34,407 nt of DNA from a virus. Lineage: Duplodnaviria; Heunggongvirae; Uroviricota; Caudoviricetes; Peduoviridae. Below the pieces are notes generated by a model. It made no database searches and was not told the DNA's origin. It saw only the letters and a program-made list of their open reading frames with translations. Position numbers and translations under genes: made by a program. The DNA is taken from the IMG/VR virus record IMGVR_UViG_2541047772_000007; one strand, written 5' to 3'. Shown here one piece after another: positions 7,047-34,407 of the stretch (position 1 is the first letter of the stretch; the number at the start of each line of letters is the position of its first letter).

Positions 7047-8237
7047 TTAATTGCTGTTAACCGAGGTGACCAGATTTGCCAGGTATTTATCGGTAATACG
7101 CTGGCGCAGGGTCAGGTTTTCAAGAGGAGGCACCGGTGTATAGTCGTAGTCGATATACAGTTTTCCGGCCTTGAGGGTTTCCGCATCGTTGGATTCTTCA
7201 CTGAACCAGCAGGTCGCATCCACGATATAGCCGTTTGTTTTCAGCTCTCGGAATTTGGCATTGATGCCGTCAACGATGTCGCGAATCAGCGTTGCGGTGA
7301 TGGGCTTGTCCACCGCCCACATGTGCGCCTCAGCCATCGTGTCGGCCAGCACCTGCGCGGTGCGGGTGTAGTTTTCAAAGAGGAACAGCGGGTCATCAGA
7401 GCAGGTACGGTTACCCCAGAAGCGGAAACCGTCACGACGAATCAGCGTTGTGACGCCTGACTCGTTCAGCAGGTCAGCATCGGTGCCGGACTCCTGCAAA
7501 TCCCAGAATACAGATGCGCTGATGCCGGTAACACCGTTCACCCCGACGTTGGACAGCGTTTTATGCCAGCCCTGCTCCTGGTCGATTTTAGAGCGCAGCC
7601 CCAGCGCACGGGCGGTGGCATACGCGGTGGCGGTGGTACTGGTGACAGTATCCCATGCGAGGAAATCCGGCCAGATGACCATCAGCTCACGCTGGCTGAA
7701 ATTCTGGCGGTAAGCTTTCACCTCGGAAATGGTTTTACATCCCCATGCGCTGATATACCCGAAAGCGCGCAGCTTCTGACAGACTGATGCCAGTGCAACA
7801 GCCACCTCTTTGGTATCCAGTCCCGGCACGCCGAGAATACGCGGTTTAACACCGGTTACCGACTCTGCCGCCAGCAGGGCTTTCAGTCCGGTATACTGAC
7901 CGTTTTCGTCGGTGGTGCCGATGATATTGGAAACGGTCTGCGCGAGTTTCGTTTCCTCGTCATCACCGGTGCCGTCTTCCACGCGCACGACAACGGTGAC
8001 CGGTTTTGACTGGTCTGCGATGGCCTGCAACGATGCCGCCAGCGTGCCTTTTTTACCGGCCTTTGCAATTGCGCTCTGCACATTGGTAATCAGCACAGGT
8101 TTATTGAGGGGGAAGGTTTCCGCATCCGCATCGCTGGCCGTGCAGATCATGCCGACAATGGCAGTGGATACGGTGGAAATGACGCGGGTGCCGTCGTTAA
8201 TCTCCAGCACCTGCACGCCGTGATGATAGTCACTCAT
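7047..8237 (-). CDS. FI: Contractile tail sheath protein FI (396 aa)
   Basis: 396 aa, same length as P2 FI; N-terminus MSDYHHGVQVLEINDGTRVI... is sheath-like. Confidence 0.9.
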   Translation of the reverse strand: MSDYHHGVQVLEINDGTRVISTVSTAIVGMICTASDADAETFPLNKPVLITNVQSAIAKAGKKGTLAASLQAIADQSKPVTVVVRVEDGTGDDEETKLAQTVSNIIGTTDENGQYTGLKALLAAESVTGVKPRILGVPGLDTKEVAVALASVCQKLRAFGYISAWGCKTISEVKAYRQNFSQRELMVIWPDFLAWDTVTSTTATAYATARALGLRSKIDQEQGWHKTLSNVGVNGVTGISASVFWDLQESGTDADLLNESGVTTLIRRDGFRFWGNRTCSDDPLFLFENYTRTAQVLADTMAEAHMWAVDKPITATLIRDIVDGINAKFRELKTNGYIVDATCWFSEESNDAETLKAGKLYIDYDYTPVPPLENLTLRQRITDKYLANLVTSVNSN

Positions 8238-8566: not shown

Positions 8567-9160
8567 TCAATTATGTAAATCTTTTGTTTTATGTTCTTTG
8601 GCGTGTTGTGACAACAAATGGCTATAGCGTTTAAGCAAAATATTAGAAAGATTAAGCTCATTCATGAAGTGTTCTTCTAATAAGTAACCATCAATATCAA
8701 CTTTAATATCATTACCACTTTTCATCTTCTGTAACGTAGATTTTACACGCTCCAGCAGGATGCTTTGCTCATGGTAATAGTCCATAAGAAGAGTAACATC
8801 CTCTTTATCAAGCTTACTTAATTCGCTGAAGTAGGATTTAAACACTTTATCAGTCTGGTTTAATGCAATCTGTAAGCGAGGCCCCCCTAATGATTTGACA
8901 TTAATGGCAAAAGGCTCGCCAACAAAATGCTCCGAATTTTCGTCAAAGCCAATATATCTCGTTTTATCAAGAAAAGTGAGAGCGCGATGGTTATTAGCGA
9001 TTTCATATGCAAACATTGTTCTGATACTGTCCCTCTCAGCCTCCATGCTTATATCATCACGATGATTTGTATAAAATATATTTCCAACAAAGAGAACCAT
9101 AGCAAGAATCACTGAACTTGCCTCCCAGTTAATATTTTTTAATCGTCGCTTAGTAAACAT
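8567..9160 (-). CDS. Hypothetical membrane-anchored protein (197 aa), moron at the Z/fun position between G and FI
   Basis: ATG start preceded by an AAGGTG Shine-Dalgarno; N-terminal basic stretch plus one hydrophobic helix (SSVILAMVLFVGNIFY); strongly AT-rich compared with flanking phage genes; flanked by AT-rich intergenic regions. No family recognised. Confidence 0.7.
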   Translation of the reverse strand: MFTKRRLKNINWEASSVILAMVLFVGNIFYTNHRDDISMEAERDSIRTMFAYEIANNHRALTFLDKTRYIGFDENSEHFVGEPFAINVKSLGGPRLQIALNQTDKVFKSYFSELSKLDKEDVTLLMDYYHEQSILLERVKSTLQKMKSGNDIKVDIDGYLLEEHFMNELNLSNILLKRYSHLLSQHAKEHKTKDLHN

Positions 9161-21532: not shown

Positions 21533-23305
21533 ATGACCATCACCACAGACACCACTCTTTTACACGACCCGCGTCGTCAGGCGGCGCTGCTGTACTGGCA
21601 GGGGTTTTCCGTGCCGCAGATTGCCGCCATGTTGCAGATGAAACGCCCGACGGTGCAGAGCTGGAAACAGCGCGACGGCTGGGACAGTGTTGCCCCCATC
21701 AGCCGTGTCGAAATGAGCCTGGAAGCGCGGCTGACCCAGCTCATCATCAAACCGCAGAAAACCGGCGGTGACTTCAAGGAAATTGACCTTCTGGGACGCC
21801 AGATTGAACGACTGGCACGGGTAAACCGTTACAGTCAGACCGGCAACGAGGCAGACCTTAATCCGAACGTCGCTAACCGCAACAAAGGCGGGCGTCGCAA
21901 ACCGAAAAAGAATTTTTTCAGTGACGAGGCCATCGAAAAGCTGGAGCAGATTTTCTTTGAGCAGTCTTTCGACTATCAGTTGCACTGGTATCGCGCCGGG
22001 CTTGAGCACCGCATCCGCGATATCCTGAAATCCCGCCAGATTGGCGCGACGTTTTATTTTTCCCGCGAGGCGCTGCTGCGTGCCCTGAAAACCGGTCATA
22101 ACCAGATTTTTCTGTCGGCCAGTAAAACGCAGGCGTATGTATTCCGCGAATACATCATCGCCTTTGCCCGGCTGGTTGACGTTGACCTGACCGGTGACCC
22201 GATTGTCCTGGGCAATAACGGCGCAAAACTGATTTTTCTCGGCACCAACTCCAACACCGCGCAGAGCCATAACGGCGACCTGTACGTCGACGAGATTTTC
22301 TGGATCCCGAATTTTCAGGTACTGCGTAAGGTGGCATCAGGTATGGCCTCACAGAGTCACCTGCGCTCGACCTATTTCTCCACCCCGTCCACGCTGGCGC
22401 ACGACGCCTACCCGTTCTGGTCGGGTGAACTGTTCAACCGGGGACGCGCCAGCGCCGCCGAACGCGTGGAAATCGATGTCAGTCATAACGCCCTTGCCGG
22501 AGGTCTTCTCTGTGCGGACGGCCAGTGGCGACAGATTGTCACCATTGAGGACGCCCTGAAAGGCGGCTGCACGCTGTTTGACATTGAGCAGCTCAAACGC
22601 GAAAACAGCGCCGACGATTTTAAAAACCTGTTCATGTGTGAATTTGTTGACGACAAGGCATCGGTGTTCCCGTTCGAGGAGCTGCAACGCTGCATGGTCG
22701 ACACGCTGGAAGAATGGGAAGACTATGCGCCGTTTGCCGCCAATCCGTTCGGCTCCCGCCCGGTCTGGATTGGTTACGACCCGTCACACCGTGGCGACAG
22801 CGCCGGATGCGTGGTACTGGCACCGCCGGTGGTGGCCGGTGGCAAATTCAGAATACTTGAGCGTCACCAGTGGAAAGGCATGGACTTTGCCACTCAGGCG
22901 GAATCCATCCGCAAACTCACCGAAAAATACAACGTCGAATACATCGGTATTGATGCCACCGGCCTCGGTGTCGGCGTGTTCCAGCTCGTGCGCTCGTTCT
23001 ACCCCGCCGCGCGCGATATCCGCTACACGCCGGAAATGAAAACCGCAATGGTGCTCAAGGCAAAAGACGTCATCCGCCGTGGCTGTCTGGAATATGACGT
23101 CAGCGCCACCGACATCACCAGCTCGTTTATGGCTATCCGCAAGACCATGACCAGCAGCGGACGCAGCGCCACCTATGAGGCCAGCCGCAGCGAGGAAGCC
23201 AGCCACGCCGACCTCGCCTGGGCGACCATGCACGCCCTGTTAAATGAGCCACTCACCGCCGGTATCAGCACCCCGCTGACATCCACCATTCTGGAGTTTT
23301 ACTGA
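21533..23305 (+). CDS. P: Terminase large (ATPase) subunit P (590 aa)
   Basis: ATG preceded by a GAGG Shine-Dalgarno; begins MTITTDTTLLHDPRRQAALLYWQGFSVPQIAAMLQ...; 590 aa as for P2 P. Confidence 0.9.
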   Translation: MTITTDTTLLHDPRRQAALLYWQGFSVPQIAAMLQMKRPTVQSWKQRDGWDSVAPISRVEMSLEARLTQLIIKPQKTGGDFKEIDLLGRQIERLARVNRYSQTGNEADLNPNVANRNKGGRRKPKKNFFSDEAIEKLEQIFFEQSFDYQLHWYRAGLEHRIRDILKSRQIGATFYFSREALLRALKTGHNQIFLSASKTQAYVFREYIIAFARLVDVDLTGDPIVLGNNGAKLIFLGTNSNTAQSHNGDLYVDEIFWIPNFQVLRKVASGMASQSHLRSTYFSTPSTLAHDAYPFWSGELFNRGRASAAERVEIDVSHNALAGGLLCADGQWRQIVTIEDALKGGCTLFDIEQLKRENSADDFKNLFMCEFVDDKASVFPFEELQRCMVDTLEEWEDYAPFAANPFGSRPVWIGYDPSHRGDSAGCVVLAPPVVAGGKFRILERHQWKGMDFATQAESIRKLTEKYNVEYIGIDATGLGVGVFQLVRSFYPAARDIRYTPEMKTAMVLKAKDVIRRGCLEYDVSATDITSSFMAIRKTMTSSGRSATYEASRSEEASHADLAWATMHALLNEPLTAGISTPLTSTILEFY

Positions 23306-24339
23306 TGAGTAAGAAAAAAGGGAAAACACCGCAGCCAGCGGTGAAAACAATGACTGCCAGCGCCCCGAAAATGGAGGCATTCACCTTTGGCGAGCCGGTG
23401 CCGGTACTCGACCGCCGTGACATTCTGGATTATGTCGAGTGCATCAGTAACGGCAGATGGTATGAGCCACCAATCAGCTTTACCGGTCTGGCAAAAAGCC
23501 TGCGTGCTGCCGTGCATCACAGCTCCCCGATTTACGTCAAACGCAATATTCTGGCCTCGACATTTATCCCGCATCCGTGGCTTTCCCAGCAGGATTTCAG
23601 CCGCTTTGTGCTGGATTTTCTGGTGTTCGGTAATGCTTTTCTGGAAAAGCGATACAGCACCACCGGTAAGGTCATCAGACTGGAAACCTCACCGGCAAAA
23701 TATACCCGCCGTGGTGTGGAGGAGGATGTTTACTGGTGGGTGCCGTCCTTCAACGAGCCGACACCTTTCACGCCCGGCTCCGTGTTTCATCTGCTGGAGC
23801 CGGATATTAATCAGGAGCTGTACGGCCTGCCGGAATATCTCAGCGCCCTTAACTCTGCCTGGCTGAATGAGTCGGCCACGCTGTTCCGCCGCAAGTATTA
23901 CGAAAACGGCGCACATGCCGGATACATCATGTACGTCACTGATGCCGTGCAGGATCGCAACGATATCGAAATGCTCCGCGAAAACATGGTGAAGTCGAAA
24001 GGCCGCAACAACTTTAAAAATCTGTTTCTCTATGCCCCACAGGGGAAAGCCGACGGCATTAAAATTATCCCGCTCAGTGAAGTCGCAACGAAGGACGATT
24101 TTTTTAATATCAAAAAAGCCAGCGCCGCTGACCTGCTGGACGCGCACCGCATCCCCTTTCAGTTGATGGGCGGCAAGCCGGAGAACGTCGGGTCGCTGGG
24201 TGATATTGAGAAAGTGGCAAAGGTCTTTGTCCGCAATGAGCTTATCCCGCTACAGGACAGGATCCGCGAGATAAACGGCTGGCTCGGTCAGGAGGTCATC
24301 CGCTTTAAAAACTACTCACTGGACACTGACAACGGCTGA
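23305..24339 (+). CDS. Q: Portal protein Q (344 aa)
   Basis: 344 aa as for P2 Q; start overlaps the P stop. Confidence 0.9.
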   Translation: MSKKKGKTPQPAVKTMTASAPKMEAFTFGEPVPVLDRRDILDYVECISNGRWYEPPISFTGLAKSLRAAVHHSSPIYVKRNILASTFIPHPWLSQQDFSRFVLDFLVFGNAFLEKRYSTTGKVIRLETSPAKYTRRGVEEDVYWWVPSFNEPTPFTPGSVFHLLEPDINQELYGLPEYLSALNSAWLNESATLFRRKYYENGAHAGYIMYVTDAVQDRNDIEMLRENMVKSKGRNNFKNLFLYAPQGKADGIKIIPLSEVATKDDFFNIKKASAADLLDAHRIPFQLMGGKPENVGSLGDIEKVAKVFVRNELIPLQDRIREINGWLGQEVIRFKNYSLDTDNG

Positions 24340-24508: not shown

Positions 24509-24527
24509 GTGCTTTCCCCGCCTCGCC
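24509..24527. other. cos site: 19-nt cohesive-end sequence (reverse complement of GGCGAGGCGGGGAAAGCAC)
   Basis: GTGCTTTCCCCGCCTCGCC matches the P2 cohesive-end sequence as I recall it; located just beyond Q as in P2. +/-1 nt. Confidence 0.75.
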
Positions 24528-24949
24528 CGCCCGCTTCATGGGTCGGTTTTAATGCAGGTGCATGACCACCATGGTGTCGCGCCTATTCTGACGGAGCACG
24601 ATCTAAACTAGCAGCTCCAACGCATGCAAAACAATGCGCCTAATGCTTGCACATCTGAAAATAAAAATCGTGTAGAAAGATATAGCAAAGTCTGCATATT
24701 AAAGCTGGCTGGCACGCAACTCATATCGCAGTGATTTGCCAATTACATTGCGCAAAATTTACACTAACAACGGTTATCAAGAAGCAGGCGCAAATTGATT
24801 ATCAAAAACTCGATCTAATCTATTGATCTAGACACGAATATTTATGCATCCTGATATTGTTTTAAAGGTCTTTGATTGCCTAATCAAGTCCTGCACTACT
24901 TTGGCGTACAACACTTACATAAAGTTGAAAACTACAGAAGGGCACAAGA

Positions 24950-26035
24950 ATGGGTTACGAAGTTGATTTCTTAGCAGTTGGAGAAAAAAAAAGTGGAGAT
25001 GCTATCTGCATAAGATGGGGCAACCTCCACGGAACAAGAGCAGAGCAAAAAGTTGTCGTAATTGATGCGGGGTACGCAAGCACTGGTCCACAAATAATTG
25101 AACATTTACAGAAATACTATCATACAAATACTATTGACTTACTCATATCCACGCATCCAGATAGCGACCATGCTGGCGGCCTTGAGCATGTGATTGAGAA
25201 TGCGGAAGTCAAAGAGTTCTGGATTCACCAGCCTTGGGAGCATAATGAAAATCTCGCGCAGGAATTTGCTGATGGAAGGATAACAGATGCAAGTATTGCC
25301 AGACGTATACAAGATAATCTACAAAAAGCCTATGATGCCGTCAAATCAGCGAAAAAAAAAGGAATAGAAATTAAGGAGCCTTTTCAAGGCAGGACTTGGG
25401 ACAATTCTAAACTGGTTGTTATTGGACCAACACAAGCATACTATGAAACATTAATCCCCGATTTTGCAAGAATGCCTGAAAAAGCAGAAACAACTGCAAC
25501 CAGTGGTACAGATGCATATAACTACTTTTTTGAGAAAGCCAAAGAACAAGTCGAGTATATTGCTGATTGGTTCTCTGATGAGGGAATTGATGACAAGGAC
25601 ACAACTACTGCACAAAACAATTCAAGCGTTATATTAAAAATTGAAATTGACAATAAAACACTAGTATTTACAGGTGATGCAGGAATAACTGCATTAGATA
25701 TGGCTGCTGATCATATAAATAATAACTCATTATCATTTATTCAAGTGCCCCACCATGGAAGCAGGAGAAACATCGGTCCAGCGGTGCTAAATAAGCTCGT
25801 TGGAAATATTGTAAGCGAAGGAGGAAGAAGTGGTGTTTGTGCATTTATATCATGCGCACCGGATTCCGATAAACACCCTCATCAAGCGGTCATTAATGCT
25901 TTTACAAGGCGTGGAGCCAAAGTAGTCGCCACAGAAGGCACCAATAAACGCCATTCTAGTAATGCCCCCGCCAGAGATGGCTGGACTGCAGTCACCCCAC
26001 GCTCATACGCAAGGAGTTATAAGACTGAAGAATAA
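24950..26035 (+). CDS. ComEC-like metallo-beta-lactamase-fold hydrolase (361 aa), putative nuclease; cargo gene at the P2 tin/old position
   Basis: Motifs in the translation: FLAVGEKKSGDAICIRWG....VVVIDAGY, STHPDSDHAGG (HxDxDH metal-binding motif), LVFTGDAG, VPHHGS. Strongly AT-rich. This ORF is distinct from P2 tin and old (the P2 old product is an OLD-family ATPase-nuclease). Confidence 0.75.
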   Translation: MGYEVDFLAVGEKKSGDAICIRWGNLHGTRAEQKVVVIDAGYASTGPQIIEHLQKYYHTNTIDLLISTHPDSDHAGGLEHVIENAEVKEFWIHQPWEHNENLAQEFADGRITDASIARRIQDNLQKAYDAVKSAKKKGIEIKEPFQGRTWDNSKLVVIGPTQAYYETLIPDFARMPEKAETTATSGTDAYNYFFEKAKEQVEYIADWFSDEGIDDKDTTTAQNNSSVILKIEIDNKTLVFTGDAGITALDMAADHINNNSLSFIQVPHHGSRRNIGPAVLNKLVGNIVSEGGRSGVCAFISCAPDSDKHPHQAVINAFTRRGAKVVATEGTNKRHSSNAPARDGWTAVTPRSYARSYKTEE

Positions 26036-26041
26036 TTCGTT

Positions 26042-26061
26042 AAGCTGCCTTAGGGCAGCTT
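26042..26061. terminator. Bidirectional hairpin between the convergent cargo genes (AAGCTGCC-TTAG-GGCAGCTT)
   Basis: Perfect 8-bp inverted repeat in the short gap between the MBL gene stop and the membrane-protein gene stop; overlaps the last codons of the latter. Confidence 0.5.
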
Positions 26062-26538
26062 ATTATTAGCCTTACTCACTCTTAATGTAATAAACTTAAT
26101 TTGCTTAACGTACGACACAATAAAAACAAAAATCAAAAACAATGAAATCCATTTCGACGCCATGTAATCACCACCAACTACAAACGAAACAAAAAACAAA
26201 GAAAACAAAAAAACCAAGGACATAGAGAATAACGTCCTATACATATTTGCAGTTTCTTGAAGAAGCTCTATTTTATTATCCTTTCTACATGCTGAGATAT
26301 ATTCCTCATATGGAACAAATTTTACCAGCCCCAAAAACTTCAACACAGGCTCAAAAACAATAGACCCAATCCTTCCGATAATTATCCCCGTAAAATAGTA
26401 AAGTACCACATTCTTAACAACATCATCTGTGGATAATATCACATTGGTTGCCCGCTCAAACAAATAAATAAACAAAGCACCGGGAAAGAGATTGTTAAAT
26501 ATATTATAAGACGATATTTTTTCCCATAAACCATCCAT
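26050..26538 (-). CDS. Hypothetical small integral membrane protein (about 162 aa, about four predicted transmembrane helices); second cargo gene
   Basis: ATG (MDGLWEK...) preceded by an AAGGTG Shine-Dalgarno; the track ORF starts 3 codons earlier at a GTG. Hydrophobic segments LFPGALFIYLF, VVLYYFTGIIIGRIGSIVF, LFSMSLVFLFSLFFVSFVVGG, WISLFLIFVFIVSYV. AT-rich, convergent with the MBL gene. Confidence 0.7.
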   Translation of the reverse strand: MDGLWEKISSYNIFNNLFPGALFIYLFERATNVILSTDDVVKNVVLYYFTGIIIGRIGSIVFEPVLKFLGLVKFVPYEEYISACRKDNKIELLQETANMYRTLFSMSLVFLFSLFFVSFVVGGDYMASKWISLFLIFVFIVSYVKQIKFITLRVSKANNKLP

Positions 26539-26653
26539 ACAACACACCTTTTAACCAATTTTAAAGACGCCATTTTCATCAAAAGAAACAAAAATAGCAA
26601 GAACATCAGAACAAACTCTTTGAACACCTGAAAATATTATGTTCCGACACCAT

Positions 26654-28933
26654 TCATTTTGTAAAAGCAGAATATCCCAAACACACATCGATTGTAGGAT
26701 ATATAAACGTCTTCCTGCCATATGTTATGGTAGCCCCTCGCGCCAGCGCCTCAAGCTCCCATCGCTGCGGCCTGATACCGTTCTGAGCAAGGTCAACGCG
26801 GATACGGGTAATTTGCATTCGTTCCGACCGGGTCAGTCTGGCCGATGGCGCTATTTCATGCGGTTTTAACGGGCTTCCGTTTCTTTGCTGACGGTTTGGT
26901 CTTCTCAGGCCGTGTTTTAATGCGCTTCTGAGCGCCCTCACGACCTCCGGGTCATTCCATTCGATAACACCGTCATCAACCAGATTAAGCACTGCTGCGG
27001 CGTGCTCAGAAGGCGTGGGAGCCGGTAACGAAGTATCACCACCGGTGAGCTTTCCACAGTTATTGACAGGACTCCGAGGCGCGGCGATGCCGCTTTTTAA
27101 AGTCAAAGGCTCAACGACCGGAACTTTCGGCACAATGCGCCAGTCCGTCGTTCTGGTGATATGAATATGACGCGCGCCGAGATGCGGCGCGTAAATGCCG
27201 ACCACTCTCTCGACCTCTTCCTCGTACTCGTTAACATCATCCGACGGGCTACGGGCAACCCTGACAGTCTGACAATCACGCGGGACATTTGCCCCACCCT
27301 GCGCGCTGATATACAACGCAAAATCACCACTGTCTGCGGCAGCGCGAGCAGCCTCGACGCGTTCGTCAAACTCATCAGCAATACTGACGCCGCGAGGCAA
27401 TTTGCGTAGTTCACGGTAAGCCCCCATTGTCGGCAGTCCAACCGTTTTAAATTGCGGGATGCGCCACGTTGACGCCCATGCGGTAACAGCCGCGGCAGTA
27501 TCTTTAAGCGGCTTACCGGTATCGTTATCGAGCTGACCATCCAGTGCATAGCCGTCGATATTTTTTGAAATGTATTTCGCGATATATCCCGCAGCACCGC
27601 CCCGGTTAAGGTGTTTTGCCTGAAAACGGTTTCGCGCGGCTCCTCTTTCGTCGCCATCCTCTTTGAGCGCATAGCGGCGCATGATTTCGATAATCTGGTT
27701 ACGCTGGCGTGGATTACAAAAAAGCATCATATGCCAGTGCGGCGTTCCGTCGTGGTGTGGCTCGACGACTCGCAAACCGTAGACCTGTAAATCATTATCC
27801 TTGAATGCCGTGCGCATCAGGCTCCAGATACGGCAGAGATAACGCTGCGCATCCTTTGGATTGAATGCCTCATCATTCCAGCCGTGATTAAGCTGGACGG
27901 TTTTACTTTCGCCTTTTCCGACCTGACGTGTCGGGTGATACTTTGACGGCGCGGTCAGCGTGATAAACATCCCCACATCACCCTCTGCGGCGGCGTAACG
28001 CTCAATACCGGCAATGGTGTTCATCAGCTCCATCCGGCGAATTTCAGGATTAGAAATACTGCCCATCACCTTACTGATAAGGTCGATGCGCTCGCCGGTT
28101 TCCCTGTTTTCAAGGTCACACGATTTAAGAAATTCCAGATTTGCCTGGCGGCGCGCACGCACATCACGAATGGCGTGTTTACTGGCATAAGGAGAACGGT
28201 CTTTATTGACCTCCCCGACAGCTATCAGTAACGCTTCATGCCAGCGCATACGCTGGCCTTTAAGCTGATGAGTCCACCACTCATCGTTAAACAGACGGGC
28301 AATGGCAGAATATGCCTGCCTCGTGGTCATCAGCCCTTTACGGTATTTTTTCCAGTAGAGAGGGGAAATATTGAAAGCACGTGCAGCGCCAGCAACATGA
28401 CCATAGAGGTGAGCCTGCGCCTCATCCGTAAACAGCGATTCTTTTTCGCCATGCGCATCCACCCAGGCATCGCTGAGTTCCTCATACATCATGAAAAGCT
28501 GCGATGAGATACGGGCAGCAAACTTTTTCAGCTCCTTGTCATTCATTCCCGGCAGGCGCGCATAGTGGTCACGCTCTGCCAGAAACAGTAACGACGCGTC
28601 GGTGTTCATTTCATGGCGCTGATTCACACGCTCAATGCGCGGCCATAAACGACGCTGAAAAGTGGATGTGAGGAAATAAAACCCGTGCACCGGGCTTTTA
28701 TTGCGCCGGATGTAGTCATAGCGTGAAGTAAACAGCGAGCGCAAAAAGTAAGGCAGGCGGTTAATCGTGGATAAAACACCTTGCACCTGACGCATCTCGT
28801 CACGTGTAAGAGGTCTTTCGCGCCCGACAGCCTCGCGTGGCGCGTTCCATGCATAAGCACCGGTAAACGCCTTACCGGTGCCTGCGGCAAATGCTGACGG
28901 AGGGACAAAACGCCCGGAGGCTTTAACGGCCAT
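26654..28933 (-). CDS. A: Replication initiation protein A (rolling-circle nickase, about 759 aa)
   Basis: Begins MAVKASGRFVPPSAFAAGTGK... and contains the PHHDGTPHWH HUH-type motif; P2 A-like. The track ORF starts 14 codons upstream (alternative start 28975). Confidence 0.85.
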   Translation of the reverse strand: MAVKASGRFVPPSAFAAGTGKAFTGAYAWNAPREAVGRERPLTRDEMRQVQGVLSTINRLPYFLRSLFTSRYDYIRRNKSPVHGFYFLTSTFQRRLWPRIERVNQRHEMNTDASLLFLAERDHYARLPGMNDKELKKFAARISSQLFMMYEELSDAWVDAHGEKESLFTDEAQAHLYGHVAGAARAFNISPLYWKKYRKGLMTTRQAYSAIARLFNDEWWTHQLKGQRMRWHEALLIAVGEVNKDRSPYASKHAIRDVRARRQANLEFLKSCDLENRETGERIDLISKVMGSISNPEIRRMELMNTIAGIERYAAAEGDVGMFITLTAPSKYHPTRQVGKGESKTVQLNHGWNDEAFNPKDAQRYLCRIWSLMRTAFKDNDLQVYGLRVVEPHHDGTPHWHMMLFCNPRQRNQIIEIMRRYALKEDGDERGAARNRFQAKHLNRGGAAGYIAKYISKNIDGYALDGQLDNDTGKPLKDTAAAVTAWASTWRIPQFKTVGLPTMGAYRELRKLPRGVSIADEFDERVEAARAAADSGDFALYISAQGGANVPRDCQTVRVARSPSDDVNEYEEEVERVVGIYAPHLGARHIHITRTTDWRIVPKVPVVEPLTLKSGIAAPRSPVNNCGKLTGGDTSLPAPTPSEHAAAVLNLVDDGVIEWNDPEVVRALRSALKHGLRRPNRQQRNGSPLKPHEIAPSARLTRSERMQITRIRVDLAQNGIRPQRWELEALARGATITYGRKTFIYPTIDVCLGYSAFTK

Positions 28934-29198
28934 ATGAGCCAAAAGCCTCAGAACAACGCTTGCTGAGTTGCTCAACCTGCGCGTTTAAATCAGCAAAAGA
29001 CTTTGCGCTTCCGGTCAGAATATCGTGATGCATCAGGCCGGAAACGAGCTGGCTTAATTTCGGGTAATAACCAACCACCGCCAGCCATTCCTGACCGGCG
29101 TTTTTACCGCTTTCCGCTCTCTTTTTCTCGTGGAGAATAAACTGAAAGCTGTCACTGGTAACGACATAACGTTCGCCAATTTCGATACGAATACTCAT
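28923..29198 (-). CDS. P2 orf83-like early-operon protein (91 aa)
   Basis: Position immediately upstream of A in the early operon; length as for P2 orf83. Confidence 0.6.
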   Translation of the reverse strand: MSIRIEIGERYVVTSDSFQFILHEKKRAESGKNAGQEWLAVVGYYPKLSQLVSGLMHHDILTGSAKSFADLNAQVEQLSKRCSEAFGSYGR

Positions 29199-31498: not shown

Positions 31499-32512
31499 AT
31501 GGCAATCAAAAAACTCGATGATGGTCGATATGAAGTGGACATCCGCCCTACTGGACGTAACGGAAAACGCATCCGTAGGAAGTTTGATAAGAAAAGCGAA
31601 GCTGTCGCTTTCGAAAAATACACGTTGTACAACCACCACAATAAAGAATGGCTATCAAAACCAACAGACAAACGACGTCTGTCGGAACTGACACAGATCT
31701 GGTGGGATTTAAAGGGTAAACACGAAGAGCATGGGAAATCTAATCTTGGAAAAATTGAAATCTTCACAAAAATAACGAATGACCCATGCGCATTTCAAAT
31801 CACGAAATCCCTTATCAGCCAGTACTGCGCCACCCGAAGAAGTCAGGGTATTAAACCTTCGAGTATCAATCGTGATTTAACATGTATTAGCGGCATGTTT
31901 ACAGCCCTGATTGAAGCGGAGTTATTCTTTGGTGAGCACCCTATCAGAGGGACAAAGAGGCTTAAGGAGGAAAAACCAGAAACAGGCTATCTCACACAGG
32001 AAGAAATTGCCTTACTGCTTGCAGCACTTGACGGCGACAATAAAAAGATTGCGATTCTTTGCCTGAGTACAGGAGCACGTTGGGGAGAAGCAGCTCGTTT
32101 GAAAGCAGAAAATATCATCCATAACCGCGTCACGTTTGTTAAAACGAAAACAAACAAACCACGCACCGTCCCGATTTCAGAGGCTGTTGCCAAAATGATC
32201 GCGGATAACAAACGAGGTTTTTTATTCCCTGATGCTGATTACCCTCGCTTCAGACGAACAATGAAAGCAATAAAACCGGATTTGCCAATGGGGCAAGCCA
32301 CACATGCACTAAGGCACAGCTTTGCCACTCATTTCATGATTAATGGAGGAAGTATTATCACGCTACAACGGATACTAGGTCACACGCGGATTGAGCAAAC
32401 TATGGTTTACGCTCATTTTGCGCCAGAGTACCTTCAGGACGCCATTTCTCTTAATCCGCTAAGAGGTGGTACTGAGGCCGAGAGTGTCCACACAGTGTCC
32501 ACAGTAGAGTAA
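31499..32512 (+). CDS. int: Tyrosine integrase (337 aa)
   Basis: GGAGGG Shine-Dalgarno then ATG; C-terminal catalytic motifs HALRHSFAT and LGHTRIEQTMVYAHF; ends about 80 bp before the att core. Confidence 0.9.
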   Translation: MAIKKLDDGRYEVDIRPTGRNGKRIRRKFDKKSEAVAFEKYTLYNHHNKEWLSKPTDKRRLSELTQIWWDLKGKHEEHGKSNLGKIEIFTKITNDPCAFQITKSLISQYCATRRSQGIKPSSINRDLTCISGMFTALIEAELFFGEHPIRGTKRLKEEKPETGYLTQEEIALLLAALDGDNKKIAILCLSTGARWGEAARLKAENIIHNRVTFVKTKTNKPRTVPISEAVAKMIADNKRGFLFPDADYPRFRRTMKAIKPDLPMGQATHALRHSFATHFMINGGSIITLQRILGHTRIEQTMVYAHFAPEYLQDAISLNPLRGGTEAESVHTVSTVE

Positions 32513-32775: not shown

Positions 32776-33093
32776 TCACTCTCCACATTTGAATGTCAGA
32801 CGAGCGACGCCATGTAATCCTGCACCTTCTGTCTTCAGGTCAACTATCTGCATTTTTTTGCCCTGAGTAACACAGAAATGAGCTGCATCATTTTTTACTA
32901 TATTTTCTGCACCAGAAATTCTGCCCCTGGCTAAAGAAGCTTCGGCTTCGGTGTAGTATTGGTTATCGAGTTTACGCTGAATATTACTTTTATATGCAAG
33001 ACCAAATTTACCGATACTTGTCTCATCATTATGTACAGCACACCCAGACATAAGAAAAACACTAATTAATGATATAGCAGCTATCTTTTTCAT
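32776..33093 (-). CDS. yegR: Lipoprotein YegR (host gene, 105 aa)
   Basis: MKKIAAISLISVFLMSGC... carries a signal peptide and lipobox; recognised as E. coli YegR. Track ORF trimmed to this ATG. Confidence 0.8.
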   Translation of the reverse strand: MKKIAAISLISVFLMSGCAVHNDETSIGKFGLAYKSNIQRKLDNQYYTEAEASLARGRISGAENIVKNDAAHFCVTQGKKMQIVDLKTEGAGLHGVARLTFKCGE

Positions 33094-33507
33094 CTTACCT
33101 TCCCCCATTAAATACCAACGACACGCTCTGGTGTTAAAATATAATAATGGCATGATTATTATAATTGAATAGGATTATAATAAATGTTCTGTACAACATT
33201 TCCTACATAAGTAGGAATTACATACACGGAGGCCCTTCCGGGTAACCCCATGGGGGGGTTAATATATTTTTAATAGTATATTGAAGATGCCACTGTTTAG
33301 TTGAATATTAGGTATATGCTCTTTTTTGAAATTTACCTATGGCTACCGTTAACATTCACTGTCCCCATTGCAAGCTCCTGGTGGTAACCACTGAATCCTC
33401 TATACTTGAACTGATTTTTTATCCTCCGACTTTCATCCTGTTCTGACTCCACCTTTTCTTTTCTGCTCTACACTATCTACAGACCAATCATAAAGGCACA
33501 TACGATC

Positions 33508-34407
33508 ATGGCAGAATTTCCCGCCAGCTTACTGATTCTTAATGGCAAAAGTACTGACAATTTACCATTGCGCGAAGCAATTATGCTGTTGCGTGAGGAA
33601 GGAATGACGATCCATGTGCGGGTCACCTGGGAGAAAGGCGATGCCGCACGATATGTAGAGGAGGCCCGGAAGTTGGGCGTCGCAACGGTGATTGCCGGTG
33701 GTGGCGATGGCACCATTAATGAAGTTTCTACGGCGTTGATTCAGTGTGAGGGGGATGACATACCCGCGCTAGGAATTTTGCCATTAGGAACCGCCAATGA
33801 TTTTGCCACCAGTGTAAGGATTCCTGAGGCACTGGATAAGGCGCTGAAACTGGCAATTGCCGGTGACGCCATTGCGATAGATATGGCGCAGGTCAACAAA
33901 CAAACCTGTTTTATTAATATGGCGACAGGCGGATTTGGGACGCGTATTACCACAGAAACGCCGGAAAAATTAAAAGCCGCGCTGGGTGGCGTCTCTTACA
34001 TCATTCATGGCTTAATGCGCATGGATACTCTGCAACCGGACCGTTGTGAGATCCGCGGTGAAAACTTTCACTGGCAAGGTGACGCCCTGGTCATTGGTAT
34101 TGGTAACGGGCGTCAGGCCGGTGGCGGTCAGCAATTGTGCCCGAACGCGTTAATTAACGATGGCTTGCTGCAACTGCGCATTTTTACCGGCGATGAAATT
34201 CTTCCGGCTCTCGTATCAACATTAAAATCTGACGAAGATAACCCGAATATTATCGAAGGCGCTTCGTCGTGGTTTGATATACAAGCCCCACACGAAATCA
34301 CTTTTAATCTTGATGGCGAACCGTTGAGCGGACAAAACTTTCATATTGAAATACTTCCGGCGGCGTTGCGTTGTCGATTACCACCAGATTGCCCATTGTT
34401 GCGTTAA
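33508..34407 (+). CDS. yegS: Lipid kinase YegS (host gene, 299 aa)
   Basis: [49 protein letters not shown]... with the DAG-kinase-like GGDGT motif; the ORF ends with a stop at the window end. Confidence 0.9.

Follow-up and report, generated by a model that had tools for sequence, protein, structure and literature searches.

The closest described relatives of the element discussed here are two catalogue entries. Payne et al. (bioRxiv 10.1101/2024.01.29.577857) listed 145 candidates (PDCs) embedded in BREX, DISARM or type I restriction-modification (RM) systems, and released them in PADLOC explicitly as untested predictions ('guilt by embedding'); one of these, PDC-M48, joins an A protein and an adjacent B protein. 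Among the cargo of the A/Q hotspot of P2, Rousset et al. 2022 (Cell Host Microbe, Table S5B) tabulated a system #34, 'Lactamase_B', with 107 occurrences and two proteins, and scored it as '4 TM in protein 2' (TM, transmembrane helices). The stretch of DNA analysed here, hereafter the window (34,407 nucleotides, IMG/VR record IMGVR_UViG_2541047772_000007), is a complete P2-like prophage carrying an AT-rich cassette of two convergent genes, one for a metallo-beta-lactamase (MBL) fold protein and one for a small membrane protein. We found that this cassette is an instance of PDC-M48, which is catalogued, named by a candidate number only and uncharacterised. Moreover, sequence comparison places it as one branch of a larger and phylogenetically very broad two-gene module. 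The two genes are as follows.

24950-26035, + strand: MBL-fold metallo-hydrolase, 361 aa, soluble, PADLOC PDC-M48B, a predicted metal-dependent nuclease.
26050-26538, - strand: small polytopic inner-membrane protein, 162 aa, PADLOC PDC-M48A, supported by the PADLOC match and an AlphaFold2 (AF2) model.

The assignment comes from hidden Markov model matches of both proteins to PADLOC-DB v2.0.0. The MBL protein matches PDC-M48B (PDLC04676) at E 6.4e-99, with residues 3-355 on positions 5-353 of 357, and the membrane protein matches PDC-M48A (PDLC04670) at E 6.8e-49, with residues 4-162 on positions 1-162 of 164. As in PDC-M48, to which the cassette belongs, the A and B proteins are adjacent and matched over their full length, the genes lying 14 bp apart, though on opposite strands. 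The setting differs: the PDC-M48 loci are embedded in BREX, DISARM or RM systems, whereas the window genes are convergent and lie in a prophage. System #34 of Rousset et al. is the same pair in the same slot, again with a second protein scored as '4 TM', but represents a different allele, its MBL being 75% identical to that of the window. The initial annotation had presented the pair as undescribed, and this claim of discovery fails, as a standard tool (PADLOC) flags both genes as PDC-M48 and the P2-hotspot catalogue already has the pair. The PADLOC search that it proposed matched both genes (PDC-M48B and PDC-M48A), but to a candidate, so that the match to an already characterised system, which it had named as decisive against its claim, is not what we found. 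Indeed, system #34 does not appear among the cloned systems of Rousset et al. 2022 (Tables S2A and S2B) and was tabulated only. Our literature search found no validation of PDC-M48 or of any pair of an MBL with a TM protein; two papers testing other PDCs left out M48, and about half of the PDCs tested elsewhere gave no phenotype.

The sequenced phages P24E6b, D8, 11W and 12W (GenBank) carry an identical cassette. Of 5426 complete E. coli genomes, 45 have the cassette, 22 of them with at least 99% identity and the other 23 in the form of a second allele that is about 73% identical; in the one cassette-bearing E. coli genome examined in detail, it lies between the portal gene and gene A. In E. 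coli O25b:H4 (locus L089), the second allele has an extra hypothetical gene of 145 aa (WP_001752367, 3403-3840) between cos and the MBL gene, an interval that is non-coding in the window allele. The table of Rousset et al. 2022 also has this three-gene arrangement, made of the extra gene and the pair.

The position of the cassette in the prophage is defined by the following features.

1445-1530, + strand: CyaR/RyeE small RNA (100.7 bits).
23305-24339, + strand: portal gene Q.
24509-24527, - strand: P2 cos, the 19-nt cohesive-end sequence, left edge of the cargo slot (exact match).
24557-26711, no strand: variable AT-rich cargo insert of the A/Q hotspot (guanine-plus-cytosine (GC) content 0.38).
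26654-28975, - strand: gene A (replication).
31499-32512, + strand: phage integrase gene.
33508-34407, + strand: yegS-like diacylglycerol-kinase host gene.

Taken together, CyaR, the integrase gene and the yegS-like gene point to integration of the prophage between cyaR and yegS. The cos sequence is exactly GGCGAGGCGGGGAAAGCAC, for which 0 chance matches are expected, and homology to P2 cosR spans 24509-24556 (blastn). Since blastn homology to P2 (NC_001895) is lost at 24556 and regained at 26712, we delimit a 2.15-kb insert at 24557-26711. The rest of the window has a GC content of 0.52, compared with 0.38 in the insert, 0.41 in the MBL gene and 0.33 in the membrane-protein gene. The cassette is flanked by cos and the portal gene at its left and by gene A at its right, and this non-backbone DNA between cos/portal Q and gene A corresponds to the definition of the P2 A/Q (tin/old) hotspot (PMC9122126). 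The initial annotation had located the pair in this slot and had regarded it as horizontally acquired cargo: the positions of cos, Q and A and the broken P2 homology agree with the first statement, and the AT-rich insert in a P2 backbone with the second. P2 itself houses old and tin in the same slot, transcribed from the cos side towards gene A, but their products (an OLD-family ATPase nuclease and Tin) are unrelated to those of the cassette, in which PADLOC finds no match to either.

The 361-aa protein is an MBL-fold protein. Pfam Lactamase_B (PF00753) matches it at E 2.4e-13, with 50.9 bits for a gathering cutoff of 22.7, and its AF2 model (pLDDT 91.8, pTM 0.91) has the MBL domain of ComEC (9ic4) as its top PDB match in Foldseek (E 7e-14, target TM-score 0.76). 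There are 118 PDB matches to this model at E≤0.001, and MBL-fold proteins fill the top 50 listed. The second-best structural neighbour is the pneumococcal phosphorylcholine esterase Pce/CbpE, followed in the list by the MBL nucleases IntS11, CPSF73, RNase J and Cas14. A profile built from 75 homologues, which reach down to 47% identity, again gave the ComEC beta-lactamase-like domain as the best solved relative (9ic4, E 4e-12; also 30bt). The support from both profile and structure prediction that the initial annotation had called for was therefore found, and the motifs on which it had based a ComEC-type MBL (VVVIDAGY, THPDSDHAGG, FTGDAG and VPHHGS) are all present.

The catalytic site is intact. 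Residues D39, H69, D71, D73, H74, H93, D243, H268 and H269 are invariant in the 75 homologues and are expected to be the ligands of two metals; in order, they supply the metal motifs of the MBL superfamily, namely D, HxDxDH (the ComEC variant of HxHxDH), H, D and HH. With a ComEC-type MBL and intact ligands, the metal-dependent nuclease activity put forward in the initial annotation is plausible. The protein has no hydrophobic segment (maximum 0.89) and no signal peptide, and is thus cytoplasmic.

The MBL also matches MBLs of known defence systems, namely LmuA (E 5.6e-28), the reverse transcriptase (RT)-associated MBL RTasMBL (E 3.9e-21) and Avs1a (E 1.3e-15 to 2.5e-17) (PADLOC, NCBIfam). By homology, it thus takes its place among the defence effector MBLs of Avs1, of the UG9/DRT variant and of the Lamassu LmuA variant. 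One protease-associated defence MBL, VcMBL, is a latent Zn-dependent double-stranded DNA nuclease that kills after its occluding linkers are cut (PMC12642450). In Avs1a, the UG9/DRT MBL and VcMBL the homologous module is the terminal effector, but the window locus has no protease, STAND NTPase or RT neighbour, and the partner is a membrane protein. A variable loop of the window MBL, residues 182-194, is modelled with low confidence by AF2, and any analogy with the occluding linkers of VcMBL is speculative. Two more specific assignments were rejected. The cassette is not an AVAST type 1 (Avs1) equivalog, as Avs1a scores 62.7 for a cutoff of 420 and the neighbours are cos/portal and gene A; and the match to '6A-MBL' (NCBIfam NF058524), which belongs to a Pseudomonas jumbo-phage system, is a 40-residue match at the level of motifs, with 33.8 bits for a cutoff of 220.

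The C-terminal nuclease domain of ComEC (9ic4, 30bt, 9vc6) is the closest solved relative in both structure and sequence, and shares the HPDxDH and PHHGS motifs. This domain is a nuclease according to Silale et al. 2021, as cited in PMC12642450, and the likeness extends to a nuclease that works at the membrane with a TM module. However, ComEC combines its domains, an OB fold and a competence channel among them, in one chain of about 750-830 aa. The window MBL, by contrast, stands alone as a soluble protein, carries about 95 additional residues, and has a TM partner that is unrelated to the ComEC channel. A similar logic, a hydrolase with a small multi-TM protein in a cos-proximal P2/P4 hotspot, is found in Rst_Hydrolase-3TM, an anti-T7 system of the P4 hotspot (Rousset et al. 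2022). It is not the same system, since its hydrolase is HAD-like and not an MBL, and BLASTP revealed no similarity of its two proteins to those of the window (E 1.0 and 2.9).

Both genes are real, and what the initial annotation had described at the level of the sequence holds throughout. For the membrane protein, the mechanical open reading frame (ORF) runs over 26050-26547 (- strand) and gives 165 aa from a GTG at 26547. Because an AAGGTG Shine-Dalgarno sequence lies 8 nt upstream of the ATG at 26538 and all homologues agree with this position, we take that ATG as the predicted true start, which gives 162 aa. The protein matches phrog_11864 (E 5.7e-98), and its family consists of stand-alone proteins of 160-175 aa (1224 clusters at 50% identity in the representative library). 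Pfam and NCBIfam give no family for it. Hydropathy shows two strong C-terminal and two weaker N-terminal membrane helices, in agreement with the small partner of about four TM helices that had initially been described and with the '4 TM' scored for its homologue by Rousset et al. AF2 predicts a helical bundle with confidence (pLDDT 89.6), and a PDB fold search with this model returned nothing at E≤0.001. The conserved motifs are EKISSYNIFNNLFPG at the N-terminus, YYFxGxxxxRxGS, NNxYRT in the central loop, and SYxKQ; in TM2, G51, R56, G58 and S59 are invariant and E63 nearly so. The C-tail holds five basic residues, and the short loops at 32-39 and 122-128 are acidic. This distribution of charges suggests an N-in/C-in topology, in which the EKISSYNIFNNLFPG motif, the central loop with NNxYRT and the C-tail would all be cytoplasmic.

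The cassette belongs to a much wider family. The MBL has 2399 relatives at E<1e-5, and more than 464 species-representative genomes encode it, in at least 10 phyla; the taxa include Gammaproteobacteria, Acidobacteriota, Planctomycetota, Bacteroidota, Cyanobacteria, Verrucomicrobiota, Actinomycetota, Saccharibacteria and others. We analysed 85 loci from genomes, prophages and metagenome contigs, of which 81 came from the genome scan; beyond that scan, the sample comprises the reference phage, the other E. coli allele, two prophage contigs of Yersinia and a locus next to a type I RM operon. The linkage is tight and ancient: at 78 of the 85 loci the MBL gene has as its immediate neighbour a gene whose product, a partner with 3-4 TM helices, belongs to one of three classes, and most of 38 viral loci also have an adjacent TM partner. 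These classes are of about 215 aa (40 loci), about 245 aa (30 loci) and about 162 aa, the PDC-M48A class (8 loci). They make at least three mutually unrecognisable classes, with hhalign probabilities of 0.2-14%, and we treat them as unrelated or diverged beyond recognition. The ~162-aa and ~245-aa classes had been joined by BLAST single linkage, a homology for which profile comparison gave no support.

The ~162-aa class is the only one matched by PADLOC, and the PDC-M48 model covers this partner alone, leaving the two larger classes outside. For the ~215-aa and ~245-aa partners, PADLOC-DB v2.0.0, NCBIfam and Pfam gave nothing at E≤0.001, the sole match being a weak one to DUF2207_C in Pfam, far below its cutoff. 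These larger classes occur in hundreds of species from at least 10 phyla. As downstream neighbours (L003-L081, L107-L125), the ~215-aa and ~245-aa partners accompany most MBL homologues. The bulk of the module family is thus invisible to PADLOC.

The classes are interleaved on a crude neighbour-joining tree of the MBLs, which points to replacement of the partner on a conserved enzyme. Adjacency is kept despite varying gene order and orientation. In the ~162-aa class alone we found TM before MBL with a 4-bp overlap (Faecalibacillus), TM before MBL right after an HsdM-HsdS-HsdR operon, MBL before TM, and convergent pairs; the IMG/VR prophage contigs show the same orders and one divergent pair. 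In an Acidobacteriota metagenome-assembled genome (locus L044, 6001-7842), a single frame of 614 aa comprises an MBL (1-359) and a partner of the ~245-aa class (366-602). This in-frame fusion is either natural or due to a stop codon lost in assembly, and is weak as Rosetta-stone evidence. The neighbouring genes encode HsdM, HsdS, HsdR, TOTE conflict proteins, HerA, ResIII/PLD and DUF4365 proteins, and most members of the family are chromosomal, outside phages, beside RM or conflict systems in many phyla.

What, then, does the pair do? The initial annotation had suggested an anti-phage role, and defence is indeed the function that PDC-M48, system #34 and the context of RM and conflict genes make most likely; we consider it probable that the pair is a defence system. 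The pair lies in defence islands as well as in a prophage hotspot, and its defence-associated context was reached by two independent routes, the PADLOC PDCs and the P2-hotspot catalogue. The reading that we favour is that of a defence module, carried as lysogenic-conversion cargo, in which an MBL DNase is coupled to the membrane, although, as a complete package, it stands in our view at about even chances. In this reading, the MBL would be the catalytic effector, a binuclear-metal (probably Zn) phosphodiesterase cutting DNA. We lean, slightly, towards DNA as its substrate. The membrane protein would hold or control the MBL at the cytoplasmic face of the inner membrane, through its N-terminus, its central loop and its basic C-tail, and would either license the nuclease in response to a membrane perturbed by infection or place it at the entry site of phage DNA. 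This control or localisation is given to the membrane partner because the locus has no protease. That this protein is a sensor or an anchor rather than a killer is a tentative assignment, to which we give somewhat less than an even chance.

Several points weigh against the membrane-coupled DNase. Small TM proteins are, in most known systems, killing effectors and not sensors, and the periplasmic loops of the membrane partner are very short. The structural neighbour Pce/CbpE leaves room for a phosphodiester substrate other than a nucleic acid. The characterised defence MBLs that are related to the window protein need activation by a protease (PMC12642450), and there is none at the window locus. 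Furthermore, the physical interaction of the two proteins is drawn from synteny and from a single fusion, possibly an assembly error, and no experiment on the pair was found in the literature that we searched.

In its broadest form, this reading would make the pair class a widespread and mechanistically distinct type of immunity, in which a ComEC-type DNase is combined with a minimal inner-membrane sensor or anchor and acts at or near the site of phage DNA entry, or is released on perturbation of the membrane. Out of at least three partner classes, PDC-M48 would then represent only the one with the shortest partner, and the two classes with longer partners lie outside PADLOC-DB v2.0.0, Pfam and NCBIfam. 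Such a combination would be a two-gene counterpart of the membrane-sensing Zorya or Kiwa systems. We regard this extension as rather doubtful. If membrane control of a ComEC-like nuclease were shown, it would amount to a protease-independent licensing of an MBL effector that is also used by Avs1, DRT9 and Lamassu.

Among the other explanations, the one that survives best is abortive infection with the roles reversed, the membrane protein being a pore-forming or depolarising killer and the MBL its sensor or activator, which might process phage nucleic acid or a small phosphodiester and then open the membrane protein. The membrane partner is indeed the interchangeable part, with at least three TM classes on one conserved MBL, as is usually the case for swappable effectors, and the invariant G51, R56, G58 and S59 and near-invariant E63 of TM2 are what would be seen in an oligomeric channel; moreover, TM proteins are held to be suicide effectors in many systems (Rousset et al. 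2022). However, the homologous MBLs of Avs1, DRT and Lamassu are terminal effectors, and that of the protease-associated type is a DNase. A fully invariant catalytic site also exceeds the needs of a pure sensor, and neither Pfam nor the PDB fold search revealed any similarity of the membrane protein to known pore formers. This reversal of roles seems unlikely to us, though it is the main rival.

The cargo could also have no anti-phage role. The pair might be a membrane-associated phosphodiesterase acting on a lipid, an envelope precursor or a nucleotide signal, or it might serve the phage itself, for example in the degradation of host DNA during lytic growth. Pce/CbpE and other phosphodiesterases are among the top structural matches, the P2 hotspot also houses partition systems and a cytolethal distending toxin (PMC9122126), and the membrane-protein gene, which closely follows A on the same strand, might be reached by transcripts of the early lytic operon. 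These observations are outweighed by the family itself, whose members are mostly chromosomal and sit beside RM and conflict systems in many phyla, and which was found independently through its embedding in defence systems. Furthermore, with neither a signal peptide nor a TM helix, the MBL would have no access to envelope substrates outside the cytoplasm. We consider a function unrelated to defence improbable.

Finally, the ComEC/Rec2 competence protein of RefSeq and the 'tail protein' and 'phosphohistidine phosphatase' of other public annotations, in favour of which stand those labels and a true homology to the C-terminal MBL domain of ComEC, are refuted by domain tests and have next to no chance of being right: the MBL domain is all that is shared (TIGR00361 50.9 for a cutoff of 190, PRK11539 27.7 for 969), neither cassette protein has a Competence channel or OB-fold domain in Pfam, the tail label stems from a chimeric PHROG profile of 1077 positions matched only over 619-901, and the 4-TM protein has no phosphatase domain. 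The public names of the MBL, 'tail protein' and 'ComEC/Rec2 family competence protein' (NC_049389.1, RefSeq E. coli, NCBI), are thus misleading, as is 'phosphohistidine phosphatase' for the 4-TM protein, in which Pfam finds no such domain. All three annotations would be corrected if a membrane protein were shown to control a ComEC-like nuclease.

The cassette is a worthwhile target: at 2.1 kb it is small, E. coli prophages carry it natively, identical copies are found in P2-like phages of GenBank, and it represents a very large superfamily of MBLs with membrane partners that current defence finders mostly miss. The wider superfamily, which lies mostly outside PADLOC-DB v2.0.0, Pfam and NCBIfam, is a more interesting lead than the cassette.

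The remaining elements of the cassette concern its layout and its expression.

24557-24949, + strand: leader of the MBL gene, non-coding (no ORF reaches 60 aa), where its promoter is presumed to lie.
24647-24663, + strand: left copy of a 17-nt direct repeat.
26041-26062, no strand: hairpin common to both genes, with a 9-bp stem and a 4-nt loop (folding).
26620-26636, + strand: right copy of the 17-nt direct repeat (15/17 identical).
26636-26665, - strand: best sigma-70-like match upstream of the membrane-protein gene, TTTACA-18-CATAAT (10/12, a consensus match only).

The two stop codons are 14 bp apart, and the hairpin, with its 9-bp stem, spans this intergenic gap and the last codons of the membrane-protein gene, in line with the convergent pair separated by a shared hairpin that the initial annotation had noted. 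It folds at -18 kcal/mol, with a z score of -3.0 to -3.4. Since three diverged convergent loci, from Huaxiibacter (L002), the second E. coli allele (L089) and Yersinia (L087), have a hairpin at the same position with another stem sequence, we conclude that the element is maintained by selection. It has no T-run, and we did not call a canonical intrinsic terminator between the genes; it is probably a bidirectional 3'-end or terminator element. Rfam identified no known RNA within the cassette.

From the convergence of the genes the initial annotation had drawn a design with an effector and a modulator, a proposal that the wider sample does not bear out. At 70 of the 85 MBL loci the partner is co-directional and directly downstream, with a gap of about 0-20 bp or a short overlap. 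Convergence is the rule in every P2-like prophage locus that we examined (E. coli, Huaxiibacter, Yersinia and 16 IMG/VR contigs), and was found at one locus outside them, the viral contig L122. Because convergence is nearly confined to P2-like prophages, and because the mRNA of P2's own old-tin also starts on the cos side and runs towards gene A, the convergent layout seems to reflect adaptation to the slot rather than the mechanism of the pair.

As for transcription, the leader of the MBL gene holds sigma-70-like matches of 9/12 at 24736-24765 and 24829-24858, which are not enriched over shuffled sequences, and its promoter function is presumed. The better match, that found before the membrane-protein gene, extends into the end of gene A. 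As the membrane-protein gene is on the same strand as A, 115 bp downstream of it, it may be reached by read-through from the early operon. The 17-nt repeat brackets the cassette and is present only in the alleles that are 100% identical; homology to the locus of the second E. coli allele stops exactly at 24663, where the left copy ends. This repeat may be a recombination scar, or it may be due to chance.

Two other AT-rich patches of the window are associated with small genes. An ORF of 125 aa (32776-33153, - strand), without a Pfam or PADLOC match, lies near the junction of prophage and host, beside a patch with a GC content of 0.36 (33001-33500). The second patch, of GC about 0.35, has an ORF of 197 aa (8567-9160, - strand), also without a match in Pfam or PADLOC. 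With the tail sheath gene (7047-8237) on one side of it and the G/H tail-fibre genes on the other, this ORF occupies the place of the other cargo slot of P2, Z/fun, and is an orphan cargo gene.

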